This document shows positions 6,791-48,125 of a stretch of DNA of 64,000 bases, one piece after another; the first letter of the stretch is position 1, and every line of letters begins with the position of its first letter. The stretch is from positions 4,441 through 68,440 of the forward strand of contig QILQ01000012.1 of assembly GCA_003233455.1 (NCBI GenBank). Reading direction: 5' to 3'. The notes beneath the pieces are model-generated. The model searched no databases. It saw only the letters and a program-made list of their open reading frames with translations, and was not told where the DNA came from. This DNA comes from Candidatus Zambryskiibacteriota bacterium (GTDB taxonomy: Bacteria; Patescibacteriota; Minisyncoccia; Phycocordibacterales; WO2-35-19). The translations under genes were made by a program, and so were the position numbers.

Positions 6791-6797
6791 CATTAGA

Positions 6798-23672: not shown

Positions 23673-23720
23673 CCCCTCTCTTTGATAAGGAGAGGGCACA
23701 CGAAGTGAGGGGTGAGGTGA
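23673..23720. repeat. GC-rich palindromic repeat element, half copy (hairpin CCCCTCTCTTTGATAAGGAGAGGG + GAAGTGAGGGGTGAGGTG)
   Basis: Shares motifs with elements at 42354-42467, 46365-46415 and 47863-47936. Confidence 0.6.
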
Positions 23721-23760
23721 TTAAAAAAGAGATAGAGAAAGTTATGATACAATACTTCTT

Positions 23761-24198
23761 ATGAAAGAAAAACCTCTACAAAATTACCCTCCTTTAAAAA
23801 GACCAGTTAGAACCATACCGCAAAAAAGTGAAGAAAAAAGAGAAAGGATAAGCGTTTGGGTGGGTGCTTCTATGATAATAGTCGCTTTATGTGTTGATGT
23901 GGCTCAAGCTCTTCTTATAATTCTCGGTATAGGATTAGCATTAGGATCAATAATAACTATTGTAGCATACTTTGTTTTTTGGATTTGGTTTATGATTTTA
24001 GGTGTATCATTTATTACTAATCCTAAAAAACTGTTGACGGTGGGTATTGGTGGAGCGGTAGAAGCTTTGCCTCTTTTTAATTTCTTACCAGCCTTTACCG
24101 CCATGATAGCAACAGTAGTCTTTATGACCAAAGCTGAAGACAAAGGTGGTATGATTGGAAAAGCGGCTAGTTTGGCTCAAGGAAAAATAAAATCTTAA
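23761..24198 (+). CDS. Hypothetical membrane protein (T4SS-like cluster)
   Basis: 145 aa, 3-4 TM helices. Confidence 0.35.
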   Translation: MKEKPLQNYPPLKRPVRTIPQKSEEKRERISVWVGASMIIVALCVDVAQALLIILGIGLALGSIITIVAYFVFWIWFMILGVSFITNPKKLLTVGIGGAVEALPLFNFLPAFTAMIATVVFMTKAEDKGGMIGKAASLAQGKIKS

Positions 24199-24238
24199 AA
24201 TATTATATATAATGGAATCTAAATGATATAATAATAAA

Positions 24239-25243
24239 ATGTTAAATAAGTTTATAAAAACTTTAATATTGGTAGGTTTTGGAGTGATAATTCTACCAAC
24301 AATCTCTTTTGGTCAAATAAAAGTAAACACTTCCTACGCTCTTTCAAACGAGCTTGGAGTTGAAATCATTCCCAACTATCCAAAACCGAATAAGATGGTT
24401 TTTATCAATTTAACCCTTTACACTAACGATTTAAATTCTGCTCTCATAACTTGGTATAAGGACGGAAAAAAAGTCTTAAGTGGCAAGGGAAAAACCAAAT
24501 ATTCATTTAGAACAGCGAATGTTGGGAAAGAAACAAAAATTGAAACAGTAATTAAACTTTTAAACGGTTCTGTTTTCTCAAAAGTTTTCACTCTGAATCC
24601 AGCCAATGTTGACTTGACTTGGGAAGCTAACTCATATACGCCACCATTTTATAAAGGTAAAGCCTTGCACCCCAAACAAGGTAGTTTAAAAGTTGTAGCC
24701 ACTCCGGAATTTATTAAAGGAGGTAAAATAATTCTTCCTCAAAATTTAATTTATAAATGGTCAAATGGTCTTAAAGTATATCAAGAGCAATCCGGTTATG
24801 GTAAAAATGTTATTATTTTAAATGGTTCAATTTTAGGAAGAAATGAAAACATAAAAGTTTTAGTGACAGATCCGGTCAATAATTTAGTGGCAGAAAGTTT
24901 TGTTAATATAAAACCAATTAACCCGGAAATAGTTTTTTACAAAGACAGCCCATATTATGGACCTATTTTCAATTTAGCCATCGCTAATAATTTTAATTTA
25001 AAAGCAGAAGAAACACAGATTCTGGCAGCTCCGTATTATTTCACCAAAGAAAATATTAATGGTTTAAAATATGAATGGAGATTAAATAATCAAGTTATTT
25101 CAAATCTTTCAAGCTCCAGAACCGCCATCTTTAGAAAACCTAAAAAACAAGCGGGAAAATCCCTTATTTCTTTGCAAGTTCAAAATCTAATTAGAATCTT
25201 GCAACAAGCAGATAGAAATTTAACAATAAGTTTTAGTGATTAA
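24239..25243 (+). CDS. Hypothetical secreted protein
   Basis: Signal peptide, 334 aa. Confidence 0.35.
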   Translation: MLNKFIKTLILVGFGVIILPTISFGQIKVNTSYALSNELGVEIIPNYPKPNKMVFINLTLYTNDLNSALITWYKDGKKVLSGKGKTKYSFRTANVGKETKIETVIKLLNGSVFSKVFTLNPANVDLTWEANSYTPPFYKGKALHPKQGSLKVVATPEFIKGGKIILPQNLIYKWSNGLKVYQEQSGYGKNVIILNGSILGRNENIKVLVTDPVNNLVAESFVNIKPINPEIVFYKDSPYYGPIFNLAIANNFNLKAEETQILAAPYYFTKENINGLKYEWRLNNQVISNLSSSRTAIFRKPKKQAGKSLISLQVQNLIRILQQADRNLTISFSD

Positions 25244-26165
25244 GAATCATAAAATGAAAAAGATAATTTTAAAAATAGGAATATTGATAATACTTGCAAT
25301 GTTGATGTTGCCAATAACACAAGTTATTGCCGCTGGTGCTACTGATAATTGGGATAATAACACAACAAGTAAAAACGAATATGCGGTTCTGGCACCACTT
25401 CCCGGTGTAGCTAATAAAGTTGGTGATACCACTACTTTAAAAAAATATATCCACGCTATTTTTAATCTGGCCATAGGTCTTTCAGCGGTAGCGGCAGTCT
25501 TAATGATTGTTTTGGGCGGTTTTCAGTATATGTCCACCGATGCTATTATGAAAAAAGAGGAAGGTAAGAAGAGGATTAAAAATGCCATATATGGCTTGAT
25601 TCTTGTTATTTCTGCTTGGCTTATTCTTTACACTATTAACCCAAATCTTTTAAAACTTAACTTAAATATAGAATCCATAACAACAGCCACTCCGGCGGGA
25701 GGAACTTTGACTGGCGTCAGAACAGCAACCGGAGTGGATCTTTTATCCGGAAACAGTTTACAAGCTGATCAAGCTATTAGAGATAATTTAGGTAAGGTAA
25801 AAGTAAATAATAAACCTTGCACAACTCAAAGAACATCTAAATGCACCAATCTTAACGGATTACCCCAATCAATGATTTCTTCTTTGAAGAATTTACAAAA
25901 AAATTGCACCCAAGGTAGTAATAATTCCTGTATTGTTCAAATTAGCGGTGGCACAGAAACTTCTTTACATATAGCAGGAAGTGAACATAAACCGGGTAAA
26001 AGTGTGGTGGATTTATCATCAAAAAACACATTAAATACTTATCTTGGATACCCAACTCCTCAAAGCGGAGACACTGTAACCAAAGATGGTTTAAAATTTA
26101 AATATGAGGTTACTGGAGAAAATGGAGTTTCCACGGGACCGCATTGGCATGTAATACCCCCTTAA
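25236..26165 (+). CDS. VirB2/TrbC-pilin-like hairpin protein fused to C-terminal domain with M23-like motif (candidate T4SS-associated cell-wall hydrolase)
   Basis: Signal peptide, two hydrophobic helices separated by a short polar loop (IHAIFNLAIGLSAVAAVLMIVLGGFQY / NAIYGLILVISAWLILYTI), C-terminal ...GVSTGPHWHV resembling the STGPHxHF motif of M23 peptidases. Confidence 0.35.
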   Translation: MIKNHKMKKIILKIGILIILAMLMLPITQVIAAGATDNWDNNTTSKNEYAVLAPLPGVANKVGDTTTLKKYIHAIFNLAIGLSAVAAVLMIVLGGFQYMSTDAIMKKEEGKKRIKNAIYGLILVISAWLILYTINPNLLKLNLNIESITTATPAGGTLTGVRTATGVDLLSGNSLQADQAIRDNLGKVKVNNKPCTTQRTSKCTNLNGLPQSMISSLKNLQKNCTQGSNNSCIVQISGGTETSLHIAGSEHKPGKSVVDLSSKNTLNTYLGYPTPQSGDTVTKDGLKFKYEVTGENGVSTGPHWHVIPP

Positions 26166-26177
26166 AGTATAAATAAA

Positions 26178-27428
26178 ATGAGTAAAAAAATATTATTGAT
26201 AATAGGAATATTGGCGGTAGTGGCGGTAGCTTTGTTTTTGATTTTAACTTCAAAACCGCAAACAACTGGAGAAAATCGGGTGGGATTTTCCGTTAGAGAA
26301 TTCTTGCCTTTTGGCAAAAATGGCAATACAGAAACAAGCAGTTCAACAACAAAAATAAAAGAAAATCAATCAATTGACACATCATTAAACACAACATCAA
26401 ACCAACTAATACCAAGACTCCGAAAAATATCCAGCGGACCGATAGCGGGAGCGGTTGTTTTTAATATTGGCACCACCAGCATCGTAAGATTTGTGGAAAA
26501 AGGCACCGGTAATATTTATGAAGCGAGATCAGATTCTTTAATAATTAAAAGACTTACCAACACCACTATTCCTAAAATAATAAGAGCTTTTTGGTTGCCG
26601 AACGGTTCCGCTTTCTTAGCTCAAACTTTAATACCGAATAGTGAGATTATAGAAACAAACTTTATAAAATTAAATAAAAATCCTATTAATGTTGGCAGTG
26701 AGAATTTAACTCCATTTAGCACCACTATCGGCAAACTGCCTACTGGTATAAAAGAAATTGCCATTAAGCCTGATAGTTCCAAAATTTTTTATTACACTGT
26801 TTCCGGTTCGTCAAATTGGTTTATTTCAAAACCTGATGGTACTGATAGTTATTTGGTAATGTCTCAACCGCTAACCGAATGGTTGCCAAAATGGATTACT
26901 TCCAACCAAATAATTATGCAGAATAAAGCGAGTTCAGAAAGTGTGAGTTTTAGTTATGTTTTTAATATCAAAAATAAAACTTTCAAAAAGATAGGTTTGG
27001 GTATTAGAGGACTTTCCACAAAGCCAAATTATAATGGAACTTTAACTTTAGCTTCAAGTGGTGGCACTTTTCCTCAATTATTTATTATTGATAATAAAAA
27101 TATTACCATAAGTAAAGTAAACGCAAATACTCTAGCCGACAAATGTGTTTGGTCTAAAGATAAAAATCTTTCTGTTTATTGTGCCATCCCAATTCAAATA
27201 CCAAACGGCAATTATCCGGATATTTGGTATAAAGGGCTTGTTTCTACTGAAGATTTTATAGAAAAAATAGACTTAAATAATGATATTTTTTATAATGTTT
27301 CCAATCTTTCTTCTGAATCCGGTCAAAAAATAGATGTGATGAATTTAAGTATTTCTCCAGACGGAGCTTATCTTATTTTCCGCAACAAAACTGATGATTA
27401 TTTATGGATGTTGAAAATTGAGAAATAA
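26178..27428 (+). CDS. Hypothetical secreted protein
   Basis: N-terminal TM/signal, 416 aa. Confidence 0.35.
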   Translation: MSKKILLIIGILAVVAVALFLILTSKPQTTGENRVGFSVREFLPFGKNGNTETSSSTTKIKENQSIDTSLNTTSNQLIPRLRKISSGPIAGAVVFNIGTTSIVRFVEKGTGNIYEARSDSLIIKRLTNTTIPKIIRAFWLPNGSAFLAQTLIPNSEIIETNFIKLNKNPINVGSENLTPFSTTIGKLPTGIKEIAIKPDSSKIFYYTVSGSSNWFISKPDGTDSYLVMSQPLTEWLPKWITSNQIIMQNKASSESVSFSYVFNIKNKTFKKIGLGIRGLSTKPNYNGTLTLASSGGTFPQLFIIDNKNITISKVNANTLADKCVWSKDKNLSVYCAIPIQIPNGNYPDIWYKGLVSTEDFIEKIDLNNDIFYNVSNLSSESGQKIDVMNLSISPDGAYLIFRNKTDDYLWMLKIEK

Positions 27429-27474
27429 TAATGTATAATTAACCAGTATTCGTTTATTAATATAATTTAATCGT

Positions 27475-29649
27475 ATGAAAAAAATAATTATTCTTTTTAT
27501 TGCATTTTTAATAATATCTCCCAATTTCGCTTCTGCATCTACAATTAATAACTTACAAGAACAAATAAGATCTCTGCTCGCGCAAATTGCCTCACTTCAG
27601 CAACAACTATCACAACAAGTAGGTCAATCTGAACAAAAAATTTATACCAATACAAATAGAAATACATGCCTTTCACTTACCAACAATTTATCATATAGAT
27701 CAAGAGACTCTTGGACAAACGGGGAAGTATCAACATTGCAAGATTTTCTTCAGGTAAAAGGATATCTAAGCTCTGAACCAACGGGGTATTTTGGCCTTCT
27801 TACTCTTGAGGCGGTAAAGAAATTTCAAATCGCAAACGGTATTAGCCCAGTTCAAGGGTTTGTAGGAGTTCTCACTAGAGCAAAACTTAATTCTATGAAT
27901 AGTTGTGCTAAAACAACCACCAAAACAAGTCCAATTTCAACTTCAAACCAAATACACACACTTTCTATTCTTTATCCAACCCATAATGCTTCGTTTATCG
28001 GTACTGGTCCCAGTACAGTAACTTGGACTGATGGCGATGCAAACGGAAAATATGCTATTAAAGTCACTGTTATAAATTCTGTTGGGTATTCTTCAGGTAC
28101 AAAAGTTTTCTCCACTACCCTTACTAGAGAACAATCGGGGTGTTCGGCTAGCGATAAATGTTCCTACTCATTATCAGTAAAAATAGCTGGAACTTATCGT
28201 TTAAGTGTCAAAAATCAAACCAACGGAGTAAGCGATACAGTAAACTTTACAATTCAGGCAAATACAATCTCTCAAGTTCCTTCTATAACTATTCTTTCAC
28301 CTTCACCAATGGGAGTAAAAGGGGGGTTAGATATTGATCCAGGTAGTAATTATACTATTCGATGGACATCAACCGAGTTAAATAAAGTAAAACCTTACTT
28401 ATGTACTTATTCAGGAAGTTGTAAAATTTTAGGGAATGTACCCAATGTTGGTGTTAATACTTATTTAGGTTCTTTTAATTGGTATGTTGATCCAAATCAT
28501 CCATATTTTCCTGGTTATAATTTACGAATAAAACTTGAAGATGCTTCAAATAGTAAGGTGTTTGCTTATAGTGGTTATTTTGATGTTATTCCTATAATTG
28601 ATATAGCTCCTCAAATTCTTTATCCCAAGGGTGGTGAGATACTACAAGGCAACATAACAAATTTTATTTCTTGGAATCCAATATCATATTCCGAAACATT
28701 TGATGTATCAATTATAGGAATTGATTCTGGAAATAGTTATTTAATTATTCAGAATGTACCAGCTAAAGCAACTGATAAGCAATCAATCCAGTGGACACCT
28801 AAAACGGGGATGTACGAAAAAGATACTCGGTTCATGGCACAGGTGTGCAGAACAGGAACAACTCTTTGTTCAAAAAGTAATGGTTTTACTATTAACTTTC
28901 CAAACACTTCACAAACTCAACCATCTAATGGTAATTTCTCCATTTCTAGAAGTTCATTTGATTTCAAATATACTCAAGGTGAAAAAACTCCTCCACTTCA
29001 AGACCTAACTTTTACCAATACCTCTAACACGAAGATTACCTATACTTTAAAAGTAGACAACAAACCTAACTGGTTAAATACTAGCTATAATACAGACTCT
29101 GCAACGGTTTGGCCCGGGACAGTCACTGGCTTGCATGCTCTTGTTGATCCTGTAGGTTTAGCTCCAGGAAATTACAAAACAACCCTCTCTATTAATGGAA
29201 ATTTTACCAATTCACCTATTTCTATTCCAATTACCTTATCTGTAGTTAGTAAACCTACCACATCTAATGTAACCCCCCCAACCAACCTTACCGGCTCTTG
29301 CCCAGCACCTTATACTAAAGCAAATGTTAGTTGGGTCGCTAGTGGATACAGTCCATACTATGTCCGCATGAATCCTGGTGCTTATAATTACACATGGCCT
29401 TTGTCTTCAGGTGGTATAGTAAATCAAGTGACTAATACTAATTGGAGTTTTCCTACTACTCCTGGGAAACATTATACTTGGTGGTTAACTGTCGTAGATC
29501 CTAAAACTGGCACCATGACCGATAGGGTTGTTTATGATTTGTCTTGTGGAACCCCCCCTACAGCTACCACTCTAAACTCCAATCAAATGGCGAATGTTTT
29601 GATGTCTGTTTCGGCAATTTTAAAAAACATACTAAAATCGTTGAGATAG
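27475..29649 (+). CDS. Secreted protein with peptidoglycan-binding (PG_binding_1-like) domain and Ig-like repeats
   Basis: Signal peptide, coiled coil, then TLQDFLQVKGYLSSEPTGYFGLLTLEAVKKFQIANGISPVQGFVGVLTRAKL. Confidence 0.45.
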   Translation: MKKIIILFIAFLIISPNFASASTINNLQEQIRSLLAQIASLQQQLSQQVGQSEQKIYTNTNRNTCLSLTNNLSYRSRDSWTNGEVSTLQDFLQVKGYLSSEPTGYFGLLTLEAVKKFQIANGISPVQGFVGVLTRAKLNSMNSCAKTTTKTSPISTSNQIHTLSILYPTHNASFIGTGPSTVTWTDGDANGKYAIKVTVINSVGYSSGTKVFSTTLTREQSGCSASDKCSYSLSVKIAGTYRLSVKNQTNGVSDTVNFTIQANTISQVPSITILSPSPMGVKGGLDIDPGSNYTIRWTSTELNKVKPYLCTYSGSCKILGNVPNVGVNTYLGSFNWYVDPNHPYFPGYNLRIKLEDASNSKVFAYSGYFDVIPIIDIAPQILYPKGGEILQGNITNFISWNPISYSETFDVSIIGIDSGNSYLIIQNVPAKATDKQSIQWTPKTGMYEKDTRFMAQVCRTGTTLCSKSNGFTINFPNTSQTQPSNGNFSISRSSFDFKYTQGEKTPPLQDLTFTNTSNTKITYTLKVDNKPNWLNTSYNTDSATVWPGTVTGLHALVDPVGLAPGNYKTTLSINGNFTNSPISIPITLSVVSKPTTSNVTPPTNLTGSCPAPYTKANVSWVASGYSPYYVRMNPGAYNYTWPLSSGGIVNQVTNTNWSFPTTPGKHYTWWLTVVDPKTGTMTDRVVYDLSCGTPPTATTLNSNQMANVLMSVSAILKNILKSLR

Positions 29650-29707
29650 AGTGATTAGTATATAAATTAGTTATTATCCATTTAAATTTATTAAATAAAT
29701 AGTACAT

Positions 29708-30445
29708 ATGATCAATCAACAAATACTTAATTATATTAAACAACAACTTAGTCAGGGTGTAACCGAGGAAAATATTAAAAGAGTACTTCTTCAAAATAGT
29801 TGGGGTAATGAAGATATAGATAAGGCTTTTTCTATACTTCACCCCAAAACTCCAACACCTTCAGTACCTTTACCACCATCCTCCTCTGTATCATCAAACT
29901 TGTCGACAAAAACAGAAAATAGTTTATTTATAAATAAGCAAAAAAGATTACACCCTAAAGCAGTCTGGTTGTTTTTCTTTAATAGAATTATTTGGTGGAC
30001 ATTTGTTGCTATTTTCTTAGGCTGGGAAGGAGCGAGTATTCTCAATAGTAATAATACAGAATTAAAAGTATCTTTTAATGGATTATATTTTGTATGGTTT
30101 ATTATTATTTTTGTGATAATAATGATTATTGCTTACATTGTCGCTAAATTAACTTATCATTTTTATAAATTTGAATTGACTGACAGTGAATATAAAGCAG
30201 AACGAGGAATAATTTGGAAAAGATACATTTCTATTCCTTACGAAAGAATTCAAAATGTTGATATATATCGAGGAGTTCTTAATAGATTATTTGGTTTAAG
30301 TGATCTTAATATTCAAACTGCTGGATATGGAGCAGTTGGAATGGCAGGTAAAGGTGGAAGTGAAGGAAGATTACCTGGATTAAGTAAACAAGAAGCAGAA
30401 TTAGTACGAGCAGAACTTATTAAAAGAGCTAAAAGTATAAAGTAA
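29708..30445 (+). CDS. Bacterial PH-domain (YdbS/YdbT-like) membrane protein
   Basis: TM hairpin then ...IPYERIQNVDIYRGVLNRLFGLSDLNIQTAG. Confidence 0.45.
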   Translation: MINQQILNYIKQQLSQGVTEENIKRVLLQNSWGNEDIDKAFSILHPKTPTPSVPLPPSSSVSSNLSTKTENSLFINKQKRLHPKAVWLFFFNRIIWWTFVAIFLGWEGASILNSNNTELKVSFNGLYFVWFIIIFVIIMIIAYIVAKLTYHFYKFELTDSEYKAERGIIWKRYISIPYERIQNVDIYRGVLNRLFGLSDLNIQTAGYGAVGMAGKGGSEGRLPGLSKQEAELVRAELIKRAKSIK

Positions 30446-30470
30446 ATATTTAGAAAAAAATATTTAATAT

Positions 30471-30914
30471 TTAATTCTTATATATAACAAAAAAGGGAGC
30501 CACAAGTGACTCCCTAAAAAACAAACCAACCTCACCGTCCAGTTTATCCCTTACCGTTGGGGTAAATCCCCAGTTTCCTCTGAAAAGTGGTAGTGTCACA
30601 CTTTCCATTAGAACAAACCGTAAAGGTCGTCGGACCAACAGGTGGCATGCCTTCCTTTGGGAAAACTGCGACGCTTCCCGCCAGCGATTGGAGAATTTGG
30701 TCGCCAGCAGAGAACGACCGATGATAACCACCGCGTCGTTAGGGAGTGGTCTGGTCATGATAGCGTAGCGACCATCATCCATTATTCCCTCGCTTCCAAA
30801 CCACACCTCTTCTGGTAGTGGTCCCCACGGATCCACCACCACAGTGGATTTTTCAATCTGTCCACTGTTAATGCGGATTGCATCAATGGGACAGATTCGT
30901 GGCATAATATACAA
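30471..30914 (-). CDS. Hypothetical protein on a GC-rich island (composition unlike surrounding genome)
   Basis: 147 aa ORF with clear GC excess, starts RICPIDAI...; own terminator; next to IS remnant. Confidence 0.35.
   Translation of the reverse strand: MYIMPRICPIDAIRINSGQIEKSTVVVDPWGPLPEEVWFGSEGIMDDGRYAIMTRPLPNDAVVIIGRSLLATKFSNRWREASQFSQRKACHLLVRRPLRFVLMESVTLPLFRGNWGFTPTVRDKLDGEVGLFFRESLVAPFFVIYKN
30489..30520. terminator. Bidirectional terminator hairpin
   Basis: AAAAAAGGGAG-ccacaagtga-CTCCCTAAAAAA. Confidence 0.5.
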
Positions 30915-31002
30915 AAACGTACTCCTAAAACAACCATTTCATGTTATGGTTAAGCTATATAAGTAACATTTGTTAATTAACATGATTAAAAAAACACACT
31001 AA

Positions 31003-31865: not shown

Positions 31866-31995
31866 AACAAAAAATATTATATTCCATTTTTTTGGCTTCC
31901 ACTATTGCTCCAAACAAAAAGAAACTTGATGAAATTCTATAAAAAAGAGTACGTTTTTGTATATTATGCCAAAAAATTGAGAAATAATTAAAAAA

Positions 31996-32721
31996 TTACT
32001 TTTGGTTTTTTATCTGTTTTCTAATATAGACATCTTGGGCTATACCAAAAACATTACTAACAAACCAATAAAGAGCCACCACTCCAGATATTTTCCAAGA
32101 AATGAAAAATACTATAAAGGGCATAGTATATTTCATTTGTTTAGTCATTATTTTTGCAAAATCTGGTTTCTTGTTTGGATTAATTTTAGTTGTTTTTGTA
32201 TCTCCCATTGATTTAGAAGCTAAGTCCATCTGCCAATAACTGGTAATAGCGGCTAAAAAAGCTAAAATAATACTTTTTTGGGAAACATCTATAAGACCTA
32301 AAAATTTCATAGAGATATCTGTCGGCACTTTTATAAAAGAATATAAGAGATTGGTATCAATATTCGGTAAACCTGATTTAAAAAATATATAATAGAGAGA
32401 AAATATAATGGGAATTTGAATAATAACAGTTAAAATACTGGAAAAGGGGTTGATATTGTTGGTTTTATAAAACTCCATCGTTTTAACCGCTTGCTCTTGT
32501 TTATCTTTATATTTTTCTTTTATTAAAGCCAATTCTCCTTCTTTCTCTTTCATTCTAGTTTGGGTAACGGTAGATTTTTTGGAAATAGGGTAGAGAATTA
32601 GTTTTACTAAAATAGTCAAAATAACGGTAGCGACACCAACATCAATCCAACTTACATTTAGAATAAGAATAAGAATATTATAGAGTGGCGTATAAATAAT
32701 CGTTTTAAAGAAAGCTATCAT
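31996..32721 (-). CDS. yidC: Membrane protein insertase YidC (short form)
   Basis: 241 aa, conserved position after rnpA, multiple TM helices. Confidence 0.75.
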   Translation of the reverse strand: MIAFFKTIIYTPLYNILILILNVSWIDVGVATVILTILVKLILYPISKKSTVTQTRMKEKEGELALIKEKYKDKQEQAVKTMEFYKTNNINPFSSILTVIIQIPIIFSLYYIFFKSGLPNIDTNLLYSFIKVPTDISMKFLGLIDVSQKSIILAFLAAITSYWQMDLASKSMGDTKTTKINPNKKPDFAKIMTKQMKYTMPFIVFFISWKISGVVALYWFVSNVFGIAQDVYIRKQIKNQK

Positions 32722-32722
32722 T

Positions 32723-33052: not shown

Positions 33053-33058
33053 TAAAAA

Positions 33059-34812: not shown

Positions 34813-35916
34813 ATGAAATTTGAATGTAATAAATTAAAAATAGAAAAAGCTTGTCAAAAAATACTAAAATTAACTGATAAACATTTAACTTTACCGGTGC
34901 TTACTTGTGTTTATTTAGATATTTTAAGTAATAATAAACTTATTATAAAAGCGACGAATTTAGATGTTGGGGTAGAAATTGAAATAAAAATTAAAACAAT
35001 AGAAAAAGGTATTATAACTGTTCCAGCTAATATTTTGTTGGGAGTATTATCTTCTATTAAAGAAAATAATACTTTAATTTTTGAATCTAAAGAGAATAAT
35101 TTTAAAATATTATCCAATAAAAATTCAGTGATTATTAAATGTTTACCCTATGAAGATTTTCCAAGTATTCCAAAATTAGAAAACATAAAACCAATAAAAA
35201 TAAATTGCCATAATTTAATATCTGGGTTTAAATCTGTTTGGTATAGTGCTTCAAGTTCAAATATAAAACCAGAGCTTTCAAGTGTTTATATATATAAAAA
35301 AGATGATAAATTAGTTTTTGTTTCTACTGATTCCTTTCGTTTGGCTGAAAAAAAAATCAATACTAAAATACCAATTAATTTTCCTCAAACTATTATTCCA
35401 TATAAAAATGTTTCAGAAATAATAAAATTATTTGAAGATTATAATGGTGATATTGATGTTGTTTTTGAAAAAAACCAAGCCGCTTTTATTACAGAAGATA
35501 TTTATTTAGTATCAAGATTAATAGATGGAACTTTTCCAGATTACAAACAAATAATACCAAAAACATTTAATACTACTGTTACGGTTTTAAAAACTGATTT
35601 AATAAATTCTATTAAAACATCAAATATTTTTTCAGATTCTTTAAATCAAATTAAATTAAAAGTGAATGTTAAAAATAAATCTCTAGATATAGAATCAAAA
35701 AATAATAATATAGGAGAGTATAAAGAATCAATTACCGCTTCTGTTTTTGGTGATGATTTGGAATTAAATTTTAATAATAAATATATATTAGATTGTATGC
35801 AATCTATCCCTTCTGATAGTTTAATTTTAAGTTTTGATGGGGTTGGTAAACCACTTGCTATAAATGGAGCAACAGATAAAAGTTTCCTTTATATTGTAAT
35901 GCCTATGAATAGATAA
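34813..35916 (+). CDS. dnaN: DNA polymerase III beta sliding clamp
   Basis: 367 aa directly after dnaA. Confidence 0.85.
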   Translation: MKFECNKLKIEKACQKILKLTDKHLTLPVLTCVYLDILSNNKLIIKATNLDVGVEIEIKIKTIEKGIITVPANILLGVLSSIKENNTLIFESKENNFKILSNKNSVIIKCLPYEDFPSIPKLENIKPIKINCHNLISGFKSVWYSASSSNIKPELSSVYIYKKDDKLVFVSTDSFRLAEKKINTKIPINFPQTIIPYKNVSEIIKLFEDYNGDIDVVFEKNQAAFITEDIYLVSRLIDGTFPDYKQIIPKTFNTTVTVLKTDLINSIKTSNIFSDSLNQIKLKVNVKNKSLDIESKNNNIGEYKESITASVFGDDLELNFNNKYILDCMQSIPSDSLILSFDGVGKPLAINGATDKSFLYIVMPMNR

Positions 35917-35999
35917 TCTCACTTTAAAATACCTCACCTTAGTCCCTCTCCTATAAATACAGGAAAAGGGAGAAAGAAAGGAAAAATAATTTTAAAAAA

Positions 36000-37529: not shown

Positions 37530-37537
37530 GTAAATAT

Positions 37538-39703: not shown

Positions 39704-39748
39704 CCCTATATATTATGCCAAAAAACAAAATTATGGTAGCATTTTTAT

Positions 39749-40960: not shown

Positions 40961-41182
40961 AGACTTACTCTGTTTCGTCTAATTCATCTATATCTTTTAT
41001 TGAGGATATTGGTATCCCATTTTCATCTAATTCCTCTTCCTCCTCTTCTGATTCATCTCCAATTCCATATATTTCATCGTGATCCATAAAATTTAATTTA
41101 TTTTTAATTCTGATTAAAATTTAGCCAACAGCTAAAATCAGATTTTATAATTTTTATCACAATGTATTTTTTTTTGCAATAA

Positions 41183-41704
41183 CTAAACCAATATATCTGT
41201 GGATAAGGAAATGGCGGCACAAGTAAGGGCTGTGGCGATAGCGTCATATTCATCATCACGTCTTTTTTTTCCATTAGTTGATGGATTAATTTTAATCAAT
41301 TTTTCCACCATACTGATAACTTGTTTTTTGTCACTTTTCCCATAACCCGTTACCGCCAGTTTTATTTGATTGGGATTATATTCACAAATTAAAAGACTGC
41401 TTCTGGCTCCTTCAAGCAATATTACTCCACGAGCTTCCGCCACTTGGAGAGCGGTTTTTTTATTTTTACTCCAAAGTAGAGTTTCAATTGCCATTTTATT
41501 TGGATGATATTTTTTAATTATTTTTTTAATTTTCTCTCCTACAAGCAGTAATCTTTCGTGGTGGGGAAGTTTACCATCTGTTTCAAAACATTCTGAATAA
41601 ATCAATTTCTCTCCTTTATTAGTTTTTTCAACTATAGCTATTCCGATTCTACCGTAGCCTGGGTCAATACCTAATATTATATTTTTATTTTTTATTGGAG
41701 TCAT
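41183..41704 (-). CDS. ruvC: Holliday junction resolvase RuvC
   Basis: IILGIDPGYGRIGIAIVE... Confidence 0.8.
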   Translation of the reverse strand: MTPIKNKNIILGIDPGYGRIGIAIVEKTNKGEKLIYSECFETDGKLPHHERLLLVGEKIKKIIKKYHPNKMAIETLLWSKNKKTALQVAEARGVILLEGARSSLLICEYNPNQIKLAVTGYGKSDKKQVISMVEKLIKINPSTNGKKRRDDEYDAIATALTCAAISLSTDILV

Positions 41705-41746
41705 ATTTTTATTAAGGCACTTCAAAAGTATATTCTCAACGAAAAA

Positions 41747-42283
41747 TTACTCTGCATTTGTGAAAACTTCTTGAACTTCATCATTTTCTTCAAGTTCTTC
41801 TATTAAAATTTGCAATTTAGCGTTATCTGTTTCTGATATTGGTATCGTATTTTTGGGTGTCCAAATGTTGGCATCTATTTTTTTTTCAAAAGCCCAAGTA
41901 GCTGAACCAGGGACAGCTAACTCAAAACCATTTTTTGAAAGTATGTGTCTTATTTCTTGAGCAGCTCTATTTTTACTTTCGGTTAAAGCCTCAATAATCA
42001 AAGCGGAGCCACCTGGTCCGTAAGCTTCGTATGTTATTTGTTCCATTTCTCCAACCTCGGTTTCCACGCCTTTCTTTACCGCTCTTTCAATATTGTTGTT
42101 CGGCACATTTTCTGTTTTCGCTTTTTCTATAGCGGCTCTCAATCTGGGAGCATTAACATCGCCCCCAACTTTTTTAGACTCTATTGCGATAAGACGAACT
42201 AACTTGCCAAAAACTTTGCTTTTTTGAGCGTCGGTAACCGCTTTTTTATTTTTTATTTTTGACCATTTATTATGTCCTGACAT
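41747..42283 (-). CDS. YebC/PmpR family protein (short)
   Basis: MSGHNKWSKIKNKKAVTDAQKSKVFGKLVRLI. Confidence 0.7.
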   Translation of the reverse strand: MSGHNKWSKIKNKKAVTDAQKSKVFGKLVRLIAIESKKVGGDVNAPRLRAAIEKAKTENVPNNNIERAVKKGVETEVGEMEQITYEAYGPGGSALIIEALTESKNRAAQEIRHILSKNGFELAVPGSATWAFEKKIDANIWTPKNTIPISETDNAKLQILIEELEENDEVQEVFTNAE

Positions 42284-42353
42284 AATTTAAATCATAACAA
42301 AATTGTGATAATTTTTCTAACATCCCTAATCCTTTTAATCCTCTAAAAAATAA

Positions 42354-42467
42354 CCTCCCTAACTCTCCTTACTTTAAGGAGGGAACCGCGCAATAAACTC
42401 TGTTAAACAACTGAATAATAAATATGAGTCACCCTCTCCTTAAGGTAAGGAGAGGGCTGGGGAGAGG
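42354..42467. repeat. Two copies of GC-rich palindromic hairpin element (CTCTCCTTAcTTTAAGGAGGG and CCCTCTCCTTAaggTAAGGAGAGGG) in yebC-ruvB intergenic region
   Basis: Direct reading; same family as 23673, 46365, 47863. Confidence 0.6.
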
Positions 42468-42487
42468 TTAGATAATGCAGTTATAAT

Positions 42488-43537
42488 TTAAAGTAACTTC
42501 TCTTGTTTTTCTTTTGGAAAATCTATATCCAAATGTTTGTAGGCACGTTTTGTGAGCACCCTTCCTTTTGGTGTACGCTCTAAGAAACCAATTTGGAGCA
42601 AATAAGGTTCATTAAATTCTTCAATAGTTGACTCTTCTTCCGAAAGGGAAGCGGCTAAAGTATTAAGACCAACTGGTCCGCCTCTAAATTTATCAGCAAT
42701 AGTTTTGAGTAGGGCAATATCGGAAAAATTAAGTCCCGCTTTATCTATGCCTAAAAGATTAAAAGCTTCTCGGGCTATATTTTGGTCAATATCTTTTTTT
42801 TGGATTTGGGCATAATCTCTAGCTCTTTTTAAAAGATAATTAGCAGTGCGAGGAGTAAACCTGCTTCTTTCTCCTATGTCCTTTGCCGCCATTTTATCTA
42901 AAGAAACTCCCAAAATATTCGCCGAACGTTTGATTATTTGTATAATTTCATTCGGATTATAAAATTCAAGACGAAAGACGCCACCGGAAAACCTGCTTCG
43001 CAGAGGCGAAGAAAGCATAGCTACCCGAGTAGTGGCTCCTATCAGAGTAAAAGCGGGCAATTCAAGCTGAATAGTTCTGGCACTTGGTCCTTTGCCTATA
43101 ATAATATCTAACAACCCCGACTCCATCGCCGGATAAAGCACTTCCTCAATAGATTTATTTAATCGGTGAATTTCATCTATAAAAAGAATATCTCCTGGAG
43201 AAAGGTTGGTGAGTATAGAAGCCAAGTCTCCTATTTTTTCAATAGCTGGTCCGGAAGTTGAACGCATCTGACTGCTTGTTTCTTTGGCTATAAGATGGGC
43301 TAAAGTAGTTTTGCCAAGACCTGGGGGACCGTAAAATAAGAGGTGTTCCGGCGGATGTCCTCTTTCTCGGGCGGCGTCTAAGAGAATTCTAAGATTTTTT
43401 TTTATATTTTCTTGTCCGATATACTCATCCCATTTAGAAGGTCTTAAGGTTTGGTCTAAAAAATCAAGATTTTCACCTGATACACTATTATGATGAGCGG
43501 GTTTGTTTCCTTTGTTTTTCTTGCTATTTATTGACAT
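42488..43537 (-). CDS. ruvB: Holliday junction branch migration ATPase RuvB
   Basis: GPPGLGKTTLAHLIA, ...ILFIDEIHRL. Confidence 0.9.
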   Translation of the reverse strand: MSINSKKNKGNKPAHHNSVSGENLDFLDQTLRPSKWDEYIGQENIKKNLRILLDAARERGHPPEHLLFYGPPGLGKTTLAHLIAKETSSQMRSTSGPAIEKIGDLASILTNLSPGDILFIDEIHRLNKSIEEVLYPAMESGLLDIIIGKGPSARTIQLELPAFTLIGATTRVAMLSSPLRSRFSGGVFRLEFYNPNEIIQIIKRSANILGVSLDKMAAKDIGERSRFTPRTANYLLKRARDYAQIQKKDIDQNIAREAFNLLGIDKAGLNFSDIALLKTIADKFRGGPVGLNTLAASLSEEESTIEEFNEPYLLQIGFLERTPKGRVLTKRAYKHLDIDFPKEKQEKLL

Positions 43538-43617
43538 ATTTTATCATATATGATATACTCTTTTTGAATTTGAAATGATTGTAGTTTGAATAGAATGTTT
43601 TAATTTGCCTACACACT

Positions 43618-43779
43618 GGAGATACAAATCTCTAAGCGACACCTCGCTTTGGCGCGGTTAGACATTAAATCAAGGAAGAGCTGGTATCGTCTTTCGGGAA
43701 GAACCACTAGCTCTTTCCTCAGAATAATGTTTTGCTTTTTATTTAAATATAGAAAGTGTCGCTTAGAGATTTGTATCCC
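43618..43779. ncRNA. 162-bp element closed by 24-bp terminal inverted repeats with internal bubble and apical stem: 6S-RNA-like sRNA candidate or MITE
   Basis: GGAGATACAAATCTCTAAGCGACAC (43618-43642) vs GTGTCGCTTAGAGATTTGTATCCC (43756-43779); inner stem GGAAGAGCTGGT/ACTAGCTCTTTCC; poorly paired middle. Confidence 0.35.
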
Positions 43780-43862
43780 TAATTTCATTATTCACAAAAC
43801 TCTTGCTTCGGCAATTTATTTTGTGTATAACTTTTTAGGAAAAGTTCTTTGAAACGTTAATT

Positions 43863-44573
43863 GTGTTTCGCTACAGCAGAAAGAATCTTAAAGTAGGATT
43901 TTTCCTGCTGTGGCTAAGTGCAAATAAAGCCAAAACCAAACAGCATATGGAACATGTTTCCAGGAAGATTAAAAGCATGTCTTTTAAATCAGATTTTTCG
44001 TTTGACCAAATTTCTCAGCTTGTGTTTTCCTTGAGGAAAAACGGTTGGGATAAAAAAGATGTCACTAATTTGGGTCAGTGTGGAAAAGGGGGGTCGGCCA
44101 GCATTCGCGATTTTCTTGACGGACAAGCCGAGATTATTCTGATTGAGAAAAAAAATGATCTTGTTCTTTGTGCTGGTGTCGATGGCACCAGTACAGCAAA
44201 AAAAGCACTGAACAACCTTGGTTCTTTGGAGAAATACCTTGATTATGACGTTGTCGCCACCATGTTTCATGGTGGGGATGATGAGGTAAAAGTTCATTTC
44301 TTCAAAGTTGGTCGCAGCATCAGCGACAACGATTTGGAGGAAGAGTATAGATTAAATGGGCTCAAGCCTATTGATCCGTATTCGCTAATTGCCGTCAACA
44401 GAATCTACCCAGCTTTTTCCAAGGAGTATCCTAACGGTACCCATTGGAGAGATTCCAGTGGTATGTGGTGCCACTGTGCCTTCTGTAGCTGGTACAATCA
44501 CCACAGTGTTGTTGTTAACCACAACAACAGCTGGTGGGGTAGTAGTCCTTTTTGGTATGCTGGCTTTCGGTAG
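43863..44573 (+). CDS. Hypothetical protein (possible frameshift near 3' end)
   Basis: 236 aa ORF; last ~50 aa are Trp/His-rich while the overlapping frame 44389..44592 encodes a plausible TM helix. Confidence 0.3.
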   Translation: MFRYSRKNLKVGFFLLWLSANKAKTKQHMEHVSRKIKSMSFKSDFSFDQISQLVFSLRKNGWDKKDVTNLGQCGKGGSASIRDFLDGQAEIILIEKKNDLVLCAGVDGTSTAKKALNNLGSLEKYLDYDVVATMFHGGDDEVKVHFFKVGRSISDNDLEEEYRLNGLKPIDPYSLIAVNRIYPAFSKEYPNGTHWRDSSGMWCHCAFCSWYNHHSVVVNHNNSWWGSSPFWYAGFR

Positions 44574-44635
44574 AGCTGAATCGATTCCCTGAAAATTCGA
44601 AAGGATAAGTAGGGGGATCTGTTTTTTTATTAATT

Positions 44636-46348
44636 TTACTCCTCCAAATCAATTACTCTACCTAATTCATCAATAGAAGTAATGCCTCGCAGGATTTTAA
44701 TGACACCATCTTGCTTCATATTTAAAATATTCTGACTCTCGGCTGCTTTATTTACTTCTCTTTCACTCGGATTTTTATTGACAACTTCTTCTATTTTTTC
44801 ATCTGTTAGTATCGCTTCAAAAATGCCGGTCCTACCTTTAAATCCGGTGAAATTACATTCAGCGCAACCAACAGTTTCAAATATATTTGTAGTATCTAAA
44901 TCTTTTAAATAATTTTTATCTGAAATACTATCTGTGATTTTTTTTATTATTTTATTTTCTTTTTCCCTTAAAACAGCTTTCTTTTTGCATTTATTGCAGA
45001 GCTTTCTTATCAATCTTTGAGCCATAGCTATATTGATAGCTGAAGTAATAACTTTTGAATTTACTCCCAAATCAATCAAACGGGGGAAAGTGCCGGCAGC
45101 GTTGTTGGTATGAAGAGTGGAAAAAACAAGGTGCCCAGTTAAAGCGGCATTAACCGCAATTTCGGCTGTTTCTTCATCGCGAATTTCGCCAACCATAATA
45201 ACATCTGGGTCTTGACGCAACGAACTTCTCAAACCTTCAAGAAAGGTATAGCCTTTTTCTTCTTCCACCTGAGTTTGAACTACGCCTTTTAAATGATATT
45301 CAATCGGGTTTTCTATGGTGATCATTTTTATGCCCGGAGTCTGGATTTTTTTTAAGAAAGCATAAAGAGTGGTAGTCTTGCCACTGCCAGTCGGACCGGT
45401 ATTTAAAACCATCCCGTTTGGTTTTTTAAGTTCATTAGCGATTATATTTAATAGTTTCTTATTTATACCAAGATTTTCCAGAGATACTGAAATAGCGTTT
45501 GGATTTAAAACTCTTAAAACTATTGATTCTCCGTAACCACCAGGCAAAAGGGAGGTTCGGATTTCAATTTCCATATCGCCAAGTTTTATACTAAATCTAC
45601 CATCTTGAGCCTTTTCTTTAATATTTAATTTAAGATTTGAAATAAGTTTGATGCGAGAGAGAAGTAATTCATAAGTAGTATGATCAAGCTCTAGTATGTC
45701 ATTTAAAACTCCGTCCAGTCTATATCTAAGTTTGGCTAATTTTTCTTCCGGTTCAATATGAATATCAGAAGCATTTATAGAAATAGCTCCGGCTAATATT
45801 ATTTCCAGTATTTTTGATATACGATAACTTTTTTTTTGGTTTAAAACTATTTCAATTGATTTTTTTACATCATTAGCACTTTTAACCGATTTTACTAAAT
45901 CTTGAATCTCTTCATTGGCGATATCTAAAGATCCTCCCTTCGTTTCCATTGAATAGGAAAGGTCCTTGTAACGGTTCCAAACTTTTTCTAAACTTTGTTT
46001 GGATGCCATAAATAAAAAAGGAACATATCCTCTATCTTTTAAATCTTCAATCAGGGCGATAGTTTTATTATTATTTGGAGAGATGATGGCTATTGAAACT
46101 TTCTTATTGATAATATTAAAAGGAGCTACTTCTATCTCTCTGGCTTCTTTCTCTTTTATTATACGCAGAGCGTCAATATTGACGGGACTGATTGAAAGAT
46201 CAATATAAGGCAACCTATATTTTTGGGACATCATTTGAGCCAAACCCTCTTCTTCTTGTTCTCTTAGTTCTTTGAGTTTTATTTTTTGTTTATCTTCGTT
46301 GAATTTGATTGACATATATAAATTATAACATACAAAAAAATAACTCAC
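44636..46348 (-). CDS. pilB: Type IV pilus assembly ATPase PilB/GspE family
   Basis: Walker A GPTGSGKTTT, GEIRDEETAEIA, tetracysteine CNKC...CAEC. Confidence 0.85.
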   Translation of the reverse strand: MSYFFVCYNLYMSIKFNEDKQKIKLKELREQEEEGLAQMMSQKYRLPYIDLSISPVNIDALRIIKEKEAREIEVAPFNIINKKVSIAIISPNNNKTIALIEDLKDRGYVPFLFMASKQSLEKVWNRYKDLSYSMETKGGSLDIANEEIQDLVKSVKSANDVKKSIEIVLNQKKSYRISKILEIILAGAISINASDIHIEPEEKLAKLRYRLDGVLNDILELDHTTYELLLSRIKLISNLKLNIKEKAQDGRFSIKLGDMEIEIRTSLLPGGYGESIVLRVLNPNAISVSLENLGINKKLLNIIANELKKPNGMVLNTGPTGSGKTTTLYAFLKKIQTPGIKMITIENPIEYHLKGVVQTQVEEEKGYTFLEGLRSSLRQDPDVIMVGEIRDEETAEIAVNAALTGHLVFSTLHTNNAAGTFPRLIDLGVNSKVITSAINIAMAQRLIRKLCNKCKKKAVLREKENKIIKKITDSISDKNYLKDLDTTNIFETVGCAECNFTGFKGRTGIFEAILTDEKIEEVVNKNPSEREVNKAAESQNILNMKQDGVIKILRGITSIDELGRVIDLEE

Positions 46349-46364
46349 CTTTTTTTATTTCAAA

Positions 46365-46415
46365 CCTCACCCCTCACTCCGTGTAGCCCTCTCCTTAATA
46401 AGGAGAGAGGGGAGA
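46365..46415. repeat. GC-rich palindromic repeat element (CCTCACCCCTCACTCC + CCCTCTCCTTAataAGGAGAGAGGGG)
   Basis: Inverted orientation relative to 23673 copy; intergenic. Confidence 0.6.
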
Positions 46416-46488
46416 AACCAAAGGGAACCCTTAAAGAATTAAAGAAATGCCCCAAAAGGTCCCCCTTGGTTTTGTGTAGTATGAAAGC

Positions 46489-46517
46489 TTGACTTTTGGT
46501 TTTGACTTTGTTATAAT
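46489..46517 (+). promoter_or_regulatory. Consensus sigma70-type promoter TTGACT-17-TATAAT
   Basis: TTGACT 46489-46494, 17-nt spacer, TATAAT 46512-46517, ~25 nt upstream of ATG 46543. Confidence 0.5.
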
Positions 46518-46542
46518 TCAAATAGAAAGAGAGAGGTGTATT

Positions 46543-47430
46543 ATGAAAACCATTTTCTTGTGTGTTTTTTTGGCCACCATGCTCACCTTTACGATGAGTG
46601 GGTACGGTAGTAATCAGATTACGACGGGTGCTAAAAAGGCTGCCACCGTGGCAACCAAACAGGCGAAAAATGCTCAAAAGGTTGCCTCATCGGCAACCAA
46701 AAGAGCAGCCAAAAAGGTTGCAGAAGCCCGAAGGGCTGCGGTGAATGTCGCAGAAAAACCCAACAGCAAGAAGGCAAAAAAGAGGGCCTCCATTGCCATA
46801 GAGGTTGCGAAGGTAACACTCGAGCAGGCGAAAAATGCTCAAAAGGTTGCCGAGCAAGCTGCTGAACAGGCAAGGCTTGCCAGAGAAGCAGTTGCTGAAT
46901 TCAAGAGAACCGAGTCCCGTGCTCGATGGGAGGCTCAGCAACAGAGATGGAAGAGAAATCTCAATCTCTCATGTCCCGCCGGTGGGTGGGAGAACGTTGT
47001 CATTGAGCCGGAACTCGGAAGGGACTCCTTTCGAGTCAGTGGCAACAGGGTTGCTAGATTTTTGCTGGCTCGGTATATGGGGCTTGTAACAGCCTTCAAT
47101 CCATACCCAGATGTCGTTAATATTGACGAGGGTAGTCGAGCCCTCGTTCGCGACATGTGTCCCAAAGGGAAGATATCCCTGGTGGCCACCTTGGGGTGGG
47201 ACGCTGGGATTCTTGGTGGAGATGATTATGAGGAAGAGGAATTCCTTTGGACTGTTAGCTTGTACAAGAATGGGCACTTGTACAAGGGAAAAAGTCCGCG
47301 TCTACTCCTGTATGTATATCAATGGGTCAAGGAAAAAAAGCCTGCCCCATGGACAATGGAAGTGGACGACATTGATCGTCCTCTCCCCAAACATCTCCCG
47401 GAGCATAGGGAGGGGGGGCAGTGGAGATGA
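46543..47430 (+). CDS. GC-rich secreted Ala/Lys-rich coiled-coil protein (compositionally foreign)
   Basis: Signal peptide MKTIFLCVFLATMLTFTMSG; repeated KKAA/AKNAQKVA segments; GC3-rich codons unlike neighbours. Confidence 0.45.
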   Translation: MKTIFLCVFLATMLTFTMSGYGSNQITTGAKKAATVATKQAKNAQKVASSATKRAAKKVAEARRAAVNVAEKPNSKKAKKRASIAIEVAKVTLEQAKNAQKVAEQAAEQARLAREAVAEFKRTESRARWEAQQQRWKRNLNLSCPAGGWENVVIEPELGRDSFRVSGNRVARFLLARYMGLVTAFNPYPDVVNIDEGSRALVRDMCPKGKISLVATLGWDAGILGGDDYEEEEFLWTVSLYKNGHLYKGKSPRLLLYVYQWVKEKKPAPWTMEVDDIDRPLPKHLPEHREGGQWR

Positions 47431-47450
47431 GCAGCAATTTCTGTTCCGCT

Positions 47451-47500
47451 GGAGACTGTTCGCACAAAGTGTGCGACAGCCTCCGACGGGACTTTTTTTA
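47451..47500 (+). terminator. Intrinsic terminator
   Basis: GGAGACTGTTCGCACAAAGTGTGCGACAGCCTCC hairpin followed by CTTTTTTTA. Confidence 0.6.
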
Positions 47501-47549
47501 TTTTAATTTTGTTTACAGTTAGTCCTTTAAATTTGTTAAAAGATTTGTA

Positions 47550-47575
47550 TTTTGTAGCGATTAATCGCTACAAAA
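47550..47575. promoter_or_regulatory. 26-bp perfect palindrome upstream of tsaE (candidate operator)
   Basis: TTTTGTAGCGATT|AATCGCTACAAAA. Confidence 0.3.
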
Positions 47576-47630
47576 CAAAGTATATAAATTATTTCAAAAA
47601 TATTTTTTAGCTATGCTACAATATTGAAAT

Positions 47631-48125
47631 ATGAAAGAATTTTTATCTAAAAATGTAGAAGAAACAGCCAAAATTGCTACTGATTTTGGAAAGCAATTAA
47701 ATAGAATAAACAGAAAGGCACCTTCCGCAAAAGCTACTGTTGTGGGGTTGTATGGAGAATTGGGAAGTGGTAAGACTGCTTTTATGAAATATTTAGCGAA
47801 TTTTTTTGGTATTAAAGAAACTATCCAAAGTCCAACTTATGTAATTATGAAAACTTATAAAACCTCACCCCCCAGCCCCCTCTCCTTAACAAGGAGAGGG
47901 GGAGAAGAAAACTCCCGTTCTCTTGGGAGTGAGGTGTTCCAACATTTAATTCATATTGACGCTTATCGGATAGAAAAAGAAGATGAGATGATAAATTTAG
48001 GTTGGCAAGAAATTATATCTGACCCTAAAAATTTAATTTGTATAGAATGGCCGGAAAATATCTCAGGTATAATGCCTGAGCATACTATGATAAAATTTAA
48101 ACAAAAAATGACGAAAGAAAAATAG
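47631..48125 (+). CDS. tsaE: tRNA threonylcarbamoyladenosine biosynthesis ATPase TsaE with in-frame repeat-element insertion
   Basis: VGLYGELGSGKTAFMKYL...IQSPTYVIMKTY...IHIDAYRI...LICIEWPE; 22-aa insert SPPSPLSLTRRGGEENSRSLGS encoded by repeat. Confidence 0.7.
   Translation: MKEFLSKNVEETAKIATDFGKQLNRINRKAPSAKATVVGLYGELGSGKTAFMKYLANFFGIKETIQSPTYVIMKTYKTSPPSPLSLTRRGGEENSRSLGSEVFQHLIHIDAYRIEKEDEMINLGWQEIISDPKNLICIEWPENISGIMPEHTMIKFKQKMTKEK
47863..47936. repeat. GC-rich composite palindromic repeat element inserted in frame in tsaE
   Basis: CCTCACCCC...CCCCCTCTCCTTaacaAGGAGAGGGGG...ACTCCCgttctcttGGGAGTGAGGTG. Confidence 0.7.

Follow-up and report, generated by a model that had tools for sequence, protein, structure and literature searches.

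A family of palindromic repeats in the window

We analysed a 64,000-nt stretch of a Candidatus Zambryskiibacteriota genome (contig QILQ01000012.1, positions 4,441 to 68,440; hereafter the window). It is AT-rich, with about 32% G+C, and it holds six GC-rich hairpin modules that are one family, which we name family A. One copy lies in frame in tsaE, the gene for the ATPase subunit of the t6A threonylcarbamoyl-transfer complex, and in related genomes pairs of modules bracket a gene of the DUF559 family. An earlier note, made from the letters of the window alone, had listed five copies at four loci and had read them as selfish elements. The motifs are present at all four loci, and a covariance model together with alignments confirms a single family; all five copies stand, and the count was incomplete by one, a sixth and degenerate copy at 35930-35980.

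A family A module consists of a terminal arm of 10-12 nt, (A)ACCTCACCCC, an optional small hairpin, and a main hairpin of 9-12 basepairs, CCCTCTCCTT-loop-AAGGAGAGGG, often with a GAGAA tail on its 3' side. Where the small hairpin is missing, a few bases are found instead. Complete elements have two arms in inverted orientation, ACCTCACCCC(CC) and (GG)GGGGTGAGGT, and are 75-119 nt long.

The first module in the window is single-armed, at 23664-23720 on the minus strand, with arm ACCTCACCCC, small hairpin CTCACTTCGTGTG, main hairpin, and GAAGCGAGAA tail (57.1 bits with the covariance model, E 1.9e-11). It is intergenic, with an open reading frame (ORF) for a TraG-like P-loop protein (21813-23627) on one side and an ORF at 23761-24198 on the other, and it is antisense to both of these plus-strand genes. 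The degenerate copy (35930-35980, plus strand) has arm TACCTCACC, a decayed main hairpin, and GGGAGAAAGAAAGG tail; it is directly downstream of dnaN (34813-35916), in sense orientation between co-directional genes, and its assignment comes from by-eye alignment and MAFFT, as it scores under the covariance-model threshold. The spacer between yebC and ruvB contains a composite two-armed element (42352-42470) made of two modules, 42352-42392 on the plus strand and 42422-42470 on the minus strand (24.5 bits), which form an inverted doublet with arms pointing outward and about 30 nt of AT-rich sequence in between. A second single-armed module (46362-46419, plus strand; 63 bits, E 6e-13), immediately upstream of the gene for a pilB-like ATPase (44636-46348, minus strand), includes the arm, a small hairpin CTCACTCCGTGTAG, the main hairpin, and the tail GGGGAGAAACC. 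The copy in tsaE (47862-47936, plus strand) is a complete two-armed element of 75 nt, in which the left arm starts at 47862, the main hairpin occupies 47876-47902, the small hairpin 47905-47924, and the right arm ends at 47936.

Family A copies are far above chance in the window. The core 11-mer CCCTCTCCTTA, allowing at most one mismatch, occurs 7 times where 0.79 occurrences are expected, and the arm AACCTCACCCC, allowing at most two mismatches, occurs 13 times where 6.3 are expected; none of 100 shuffles reaches either number. An unguided repeat search of the window also recovers the family (repeats D7 and I12). With the covariance model, built from 21 modules, the window copies above threshold score 50-63 bits (E 1e-9 to 6e-13), except for 42422-42470. 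The earlier note had named, as a refuting outcome, copies that fail to align beyond short G/C-rich words; the alignment spans their whole length, 50-75 nt. There is also covariation in support of the structure. In 8 of the 21 modules a UA-to-CG double change leaves the pairing of the main hairpin intact, and the small hairpin, fully different in sequence between copies, always pairs, with compensatory changes between species.

Several known kinds of element were considered and rejected. Against Rfam 15, only tRNAs reach the gathering thresholds, and permissive thresholds over 42300-48000 give chance-level matches only, so the modules do not belong to a known RNA family. The tRNAs in the window are five ordinary ones, none of them near the elements, which argues against a tRNA-derived element. 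The modules are not intrinsic terminators either: their main hairpins have no T tails and go uncalled in a terminator scan, and they occur in both orientations relative to the flanking genes.

The copy in tsaE

The tsaE gene (47631-48125, plus strand) matches Pfam PF02367 with an E-value of 5e-28 and also matches solved structures; the homology search collected 831 homologues. The Pfam match is split into two stretches. The element is exactly 25 codons, amino acids 78-102, encoding the peptide TSPPSPLSLTRRGGEENSRSLGSEV without a stop codon in the frame used. Alignments to the solved TsaE structures 9zw5 and 1htw skip query residues 79-104 approximately, and the solved proteins have a turn of 3-4 residues there instead. 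In its predicted fold, an outer stem encloses two hairpins (-42.4 kcal/mol, z = -7.7). The earlier note had described an in-frame copy with outer arms and two inner hairpins encoding 22 residues; the split Pfam match, the gap in the structural alignments, and the fold bear out that description, at a length of 75 nt or 25 codons.

The same note had asked where the insert falls on the TsaE structure. Both the solved structures and an AlphaFold2 model place it in a loop. The model has a mean predicted local distance difference test score (pLDDT) of 81.7, and residues 78-104, between strands 73-77 and 105-110, have a pLDDT of about 50. The insertion point is the turn of the beta-hairpin that runs from the SPT motif to the HxDxYR motif. 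According to the Thermotoga TsaBDE structure, the TsaE-TsaD interface is where the nucleotide is found, together with the SPTFT motif and HxDxYR's switch tyrosine (PMC6009658). Because the strands of the hairpin begin or end at these motifs, the turn that carries the insert should, by topology, lie remote from the interface, at the opposite end of the hairpin. And since the frame used has no stop codon, the TsaE protein is probably still functional and the insertion tolerated. The other possibility that the earlier note raised, that the element exploits in-frame insertion, is conjectural.

An assembly artefact is ruled out by the presence of inserts at this same site in independent assemblies from many studies, and by a contig from a separate record (L161; loci and contigs of relatives are given L numbers throughout) that is 99.97% identical and has the same 75-nt tsaE insert. 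The sole difference between the two over 20.5 kb is a 7-bp deletion in the window at 48102, near the end of tsaE. It shifts the C-terminal frame of TsaE, which reads ...KFKQKMTKEK* in the window, where L161 and the family consensus have ...KFKHGEKNDERKIVV... Either the assembly is in error here or the end of the gene is genuinely decaying.

Family A in related genomes

We scanned the region around tsaE in one genome per species. The resulting 80 loci are all from metagenome-assembled Zambryskibacteria or Paceibacteria, and in them the gene order yebC-ruvB-pilB-x-tsaE-polA is conserved. A covariance-model scan of relatives had been suggested in the earlier note; the 21-module model finds about 40 distinct module copies in 1.4 Mb, limited to the approximately 20 closest genomes and mostly intergenic. 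Family A is thus one family of short (approximately 50-120 nt) GC-rich palindromic repeats spread through Zambryskibacteria-like Paceibacteria, within the candidate phyla radiation.

Copies in frame with protein-coding genes occur in three host genes: in tsaE (the window and 10 more species), in a variable-length linker of polA (L003, L014, and L016), and in a Mur ligase (L014). These copies use two reading frames, with TSP... and LTP... peptides, and neither frame includes stop codons. For all family-A-type inserts in TsaE with DNA available, the insert is a palindromic element or a remnant of one; the earlier note had asked whether the same insert is found in orthologs that lack palindromic DNA. 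Between genes, a module is present at the same place upstream of pilB in six loci (L001, L016, L019, L005, L064, and L040).

The window also contains another repeat, of 52 nt, with two copies (49673-49724 and 57220-57271) that are 92% identical. The first copy is in frame in polA (amino acids 321-338), and the second in a Mur-ligase ORF (56398-57816, amino acids 182-199), with the same frame and the same peptide, QKVLGSHLQDST[KR]L. L003 has another 92% copy (19383-19429). These copies seem to form a second family of in-frame repeats.

Recurrent inserts in the tsaE loop

Beyond what the earlier note had described, the tsaE loop turns out to be hit recurrently by several unrelated hairpin families. 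In TsaE proteins without insert, the segment from SPTFVI to HIDAYR has 27 residues. Thirty of the 80 species have at least 5 extra residues in it, and 20 of these 30 inserts fold better than shuffled sequences at z < -2 (16 at z < -3). Family A accounts for 11 of the inserts, and the remainder include at least 7 unrelated hairpin sequences, among them families B, C, and D (L010/L020/L029, L013, and L022). None of the loop inserts disrupts the reading frame or the catalytic motifs. A hairpin already present in tsaE, attracting palindromes or growing into them, is ruled out by the 46 tsaE genes without insert, where folding at the site is not in excess (mean z +0.6).

Family A inserts occupy this site in both orientations. 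When the inserts of L001, L004, and L009 are reverse-complemented, they align with that of the window without a gap. Each arm is the reverse complement of the other, which leaves the flanking codons, TSP and GGEV, identical in either orientation, so that either orientation can be installed at one and the same site, as observed. The opposite orientations point to repeated insertion, or to flipping via inversion or gene conversion between the arms. Remnants consisting of an arm only or of half a hairpin are found in the tsaE genes of L012 and L014, and L019 (STPPFF) is a possible third remnant, from its peptide alone. A polA tree, built roughly by neighbour joining, interleaves within one clade family A inserts of both orientations, inserts of other families, remnants, and genes with no insert, and the window is sister to the insert-free L008.

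In L010, L020, and L029, the same tsaE loop has an AT-richer hairpin family made of TACGAG/TACGAAG units, with more copies elsewhere in L029 (8745-8773 and 20344-20361). It is probably another dispersed repeat family.

Modules bracket DUF559 genes

In four loci (L001, L004, L019, and L071), an ORF of 112-118 amino acids sits between two inverted modules, with the arms pointing outward. The ORF is a DUF559 protein (PF04480, E approximately 1e-33) with a match to PDB 3hrl, an "endonuclease-like protein" (E 1e-23), and it has the Vsr-like PD-(D/E)xK fold. The acidic and histidine positions are invariant across five aligned sequences. Altogether the tsaE loci hold five DUF559 genes; a family A module adjoins all five, and four of the five are between two inverted modules. 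Four of the approximately 20 genomes with family A have DUF559, compared with none of the approximately 61 without it (Fisher p approximately 0.003).

The association extends to a wider sample. A metagenome scan with the DUF559 alignment gave 80 further loci, with up to 1.5 kb of flank per side where the contig allowed. Among them, 30 have a plus-oriented module within 130 nt upstream of the gene and 26 a minus-oriented one downstream, with 21 loci in both groups; no more than about 3 covariance-model matches are far from the DUF559 gene. In most of these loci the two flanks of the gene match each other in inverted orientation, and the 33 loci with full flanks represent at least 22 different genomic contexts. 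The tsaE element of the window shares 91% identity over 44 nt with the 3' flank of a DUF559 gene in L102, and a second family of tsaE inserts (L069) also matches hairpins that adjoin DUF559 genes.

DUF559 units can carry passenger genes. The module pair also encloses an ORF for an Lnu/ANT(2'')-like nucleotidyltransferase in L085 (1847-2344), L087 (1844-2359), and L090 (1860-2378). It is related to lincosamide and aminoglycoside nucleotidyltransferases, with a match to Lnu(D) (E 5e-23) that is under the NCBIfam cut-off. This passenger prompted us to consider integron attC cassettes, which we rejected on layout and arm sequence: the modules are inverted pairs around one or two genes, and their arms are unlike the RYYYAAC/GTTRRRY cores.

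Probable gene-less derivatives and a proposed mechanism

The spacer between yebC and ruvB is 13-60 nt long and empty of elements in most species; it is 207 nt in the window, where it contains the composite element 42352-42470. The arms and hairpins of this composite are colinear with those on either side of the DUF559 gene in L004, and with the L016 spacer of 180 nt; what is absent is the gene. The composite thus matches a gene-less derivative of a DUF559 unit, and the two hairpins that the earlier note had reported at 42354-42467 would be the two ends of that one derivative. Similarly, the single two-armed element of L014 corresponds to the L019 unit minus everything between the two main hairpins.

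From these comparisons a mechanism can be proposed. The DUF559 units would be the likely autonomous form, and the window copies would be derivatives without the gene, as MITEs (non-autonomous forms of insertion sequences that derive from them by deletion) or REPINs (doublets of repetitive extragenic palindromic, or REP, sequences) are. The main hairpins are palindromic, which makes their left halves direct repeats, and deletion between them is therefore easy; the gene-less copies probably arose from such deletions. Spread could start with a break made by the nuclease, after which copying would proceed through either transposition or arm-primed gene conversion.

Weighing the explanations

We consider it probable that family A is a REP/MITE-like selfish palindromic family with a larger form that carries DUF559, that the window copies are gene-less, and that the copy in tsaE is a tolerated in-frame insertion. 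The selfish reading had already been put forward in the earlier note, by likeness to REP sequences and to Rickettsia palindromic elements (RPEs). It is supported by the three host genes, the two reading frames, the two orientations, the differences between sister species, the remnants, and the tie to DUF559. A more specific proposal is that DUF559 is the mobilising enzyme of an undescribed class of REPIN/MITE-like elements in bacteria of the candidate phyla radiation, which would explain the repeated in-frame remodelling of a few permissive sites, above all the TsaE loop, where copying primed from the arms would insert elements in either orientation. We infer this role from the architecture, by analogy with the units that REP sequences form with their associated transposases (RAYTs), and we hold it tentatively, at somewhat under an even chance.

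A number of observations count against one or the other proposal. There is no convincing target-site duplication, and none is seen at tsaE, polA, or L001; TA flanks are confined to the yebC-ruvB spacer, where the copies in the window, L004, and L016 share an orthologous site and count as one event. A shared target-site motif was also sought and rejected, the flanks being AT-rich with no common word. The window and L161, the one very close relative, are identical at all elements, with no presence/absence difference between them. The 64-kb window contains no DUF559 homologue, and no transposase was found in it, the Pfam scan having covered the ORFs that adjoin the elements. DUF559 has no demonstrated activity, and its only solved relative is a structural-genomics entry (3hrl); we found nothing in the searchable literature on its function or on a link to mobile elements. 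PD-(D/E)xK nucleases alone are not known to act as transposases. Finally, the second DUF559 gene of L001 is beside a complete two-armed element, not within it, and orthologous sites are reused (upstream of pilB, the polA stop codon, the yebC-ruvB spacer, and the tsaE loop) in species with TsaE proteins only about 60% identical.

These last two observations belong to two different alternatives. The Vsr-like PD-(D/E)xK fold includes known homing endonucleases, and DUF559 could be a homing-type nuclease gene that parasitises the hairpin repeats, inserting into or beside them, while the repeats themselves moved otherwise or are ancient. The L001 gene next to a complete element would fit such a parasite, as would the greater number of gene-less modules, about 40 versus 5 DUF559 genes in the tsaE loci. 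However, the occupied units have a complete main hairpin on each side, not the two halves of a split site, and the gene-less two-armed form resembles a deletion product and not an uncut target. The passenger genes within the module pair also fit a bounded transposable unit better. We regard separate parasites as unlikely, while giving them more weight than any other alternative. The recurrence at orthologous places, for its part, could mean that the modules are old structures under host selection (for example terminators, stabilisers of mRNA, or sites for protein binding or translation pausing), in which case the tsaE copy would be a regulatory structure in the mRNA. The compensatory changes that maintain the stems fit this explanation, as does the presence of many unrelated hairpins in one tsaE loop, as if structure mattered over sequence. 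But orientation relative to transcription is inconsistent, with the module at 23664-23720 antisense, that at 35930-35980 sense, and tsaE inserts in both orientations; the main hairpins lack a T tail, go uncalled in the terminator scan, and do not match Rfam; sister species lack the insert, and decayed remnants are present. Nor would this alternative explain why DUF559 adjoins the modules in at least 22 contexts. Host selection of the structures therefore seems improbable to us.

It is also conceivable that the tsaE insert alone is a lineage-specific extension of the loop selected for TsaE function, with palindromic DNA that is incidental or that originated by template switching in place. Loop inserts are common (30 of 80 species), and every one of them keeps the reading frame and the catalytic motifs. 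Yet the peptides are unrelated between families, and different even between the two orientations of one element; the pLDDT of the insert is about 50; the same DNA is found between genes and in other genes; and the insert-free tsaE genes have no intrinsic hairpin to seed growth in place. We give this explanation hardly any credence.

Comparison with known systems

The selfish reading of family A, with DUF559 units as its larger form, invites comparison with several known repeats. RPEs are found in frame in unrelated genes, where they leave the ORF open and occupy sites compatible with the fold (PMC10969869). Family A behaves similarly: it is both between genes and in frame in housekeeping genes (tsaE, polA, Mur ligase), and its insertion sites are compatible with the fold, being a 3-4-residue turn in TsaE and a variable linker in polA. 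The likeness is one of behaviour. The hosts are bacteria of the candidate phyla radiation and not Rickettsia, the copies are 50-120 nt long compared with approximately 100-150 nt for RPEs, and one loop of one gene is hit repeatedly. In addition, family A brackets a DUF559 gene, whereas RPEs have no known associated enzyme.

In REP/REPIN-RAYT systems, short imperfect palindromes form inverted doublets, and a single small gene is flanked by two inverted repeats (PMC3116915, PMC3337134). Family A has all of these features, namely many short imperfect palindromes that are mostly intergenic, the inverted doublet at 42352-42470, and the layout of module, DUF559 gene, and module. The difference is that the flanked gene encodes a PD-(D/E)xK protein, DUF559, and not a Y1 HUH transposase of the IS200/IS605-like kind. 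Moreover, some units have a passenger gene, and copies in coding regions are frequent. MITEs such as Correia and Nezha share with family A the terminal inverted repeats, a length under 300 bp, the lack of an ORF, and a longer gene-bearing relative with the same ends; occasional in-frame fusions of MITEs with host genes have been described (PMC10969869). Unlike in MITEs, the only conserved ORF of the presumed parent is DUF559, with no recognised transposase, and there is no clear target-site duplication. The endonuclease-like proteins of the Vsr/DUF559 type (PDB 3hrl, and the YcjD type of E. coli) have the same domain, and the bracketing of their genes by inverted hairpin modules is seemingly undescribed. 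A literature search for links between DUF559, Vsr-like nucleases, the candidate phyla radiation, or Patescibacteria and palindromic repeats or MITEs returned nothing relevant, with incomplete coverage that makes an earlier description possible.

In-frame palindromic repeats are thus already known from Rickettsia and some MITEs, and repeat-flanked enzyme genes from REP-RAYT. What appears to be new is the host group, the Vsr-like PD-(D/E)xK class of the enzyme in place of an HUH transposase, and the repeated use of one TsaE loop. Selfish DNA within proteins, best known from Rickettsia, is now seen in the streamlined genomes of the candidate phyla radiation and in near-universal genes. For DUF559, a common domain of unknown function, the arrangement offers a testable hypothesis, that the protein may act on the arm-plus-hairpin modules flanking its own gene. 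The inserts also matter for annotation, as they split Pfam matches (TsaE and Mur ligase) and inflate the apparent protein divergence among metagenome-assembled genomes. The recurrent inserts in the tsaE loop are a natural experiment in how a loop absorbs foreign sequence.

Other features of the window

Two more hairpins lie within genes of the window. A perfect palindrome of 52 nt with a 24-bp stem (55499-55550) is in frame in fpg/mutM (54843-55769, minus strand), where it lengthens the N-terminal domain by about 18 residues; the Pfam match extends over 143 residues for a model of 117 positions, and no further copy was found in the window or in the loci of the relatives. A hairpin with a 16-bp stem (32100-32138) lies within a yidC-like ORF (31996-32721, minus strand), and no further copy of it was found.

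Between the module upstream of pilB and tsaE there is a GC-rich ORF (46489-47430), in a 2-kb bin with 41% G+C compared with 32% for the genome. Its N-terminus resembles a signal peptide, its internal repeats (46629-46686 and 46794-46851) are rich in Ala and Lys, and it has no Pfam or NCBIfam match. It has three homologues only, at least two of which seem to be near tsaE. A strong promoter-like site is at 46489-46517. Elsewhere in the window, a direct repeat of 105 nt (6694-6798 and 8477-8581) has two copies that are 86% identical and 1.8 kb apart, and a partial third match is found at 48694-48733.

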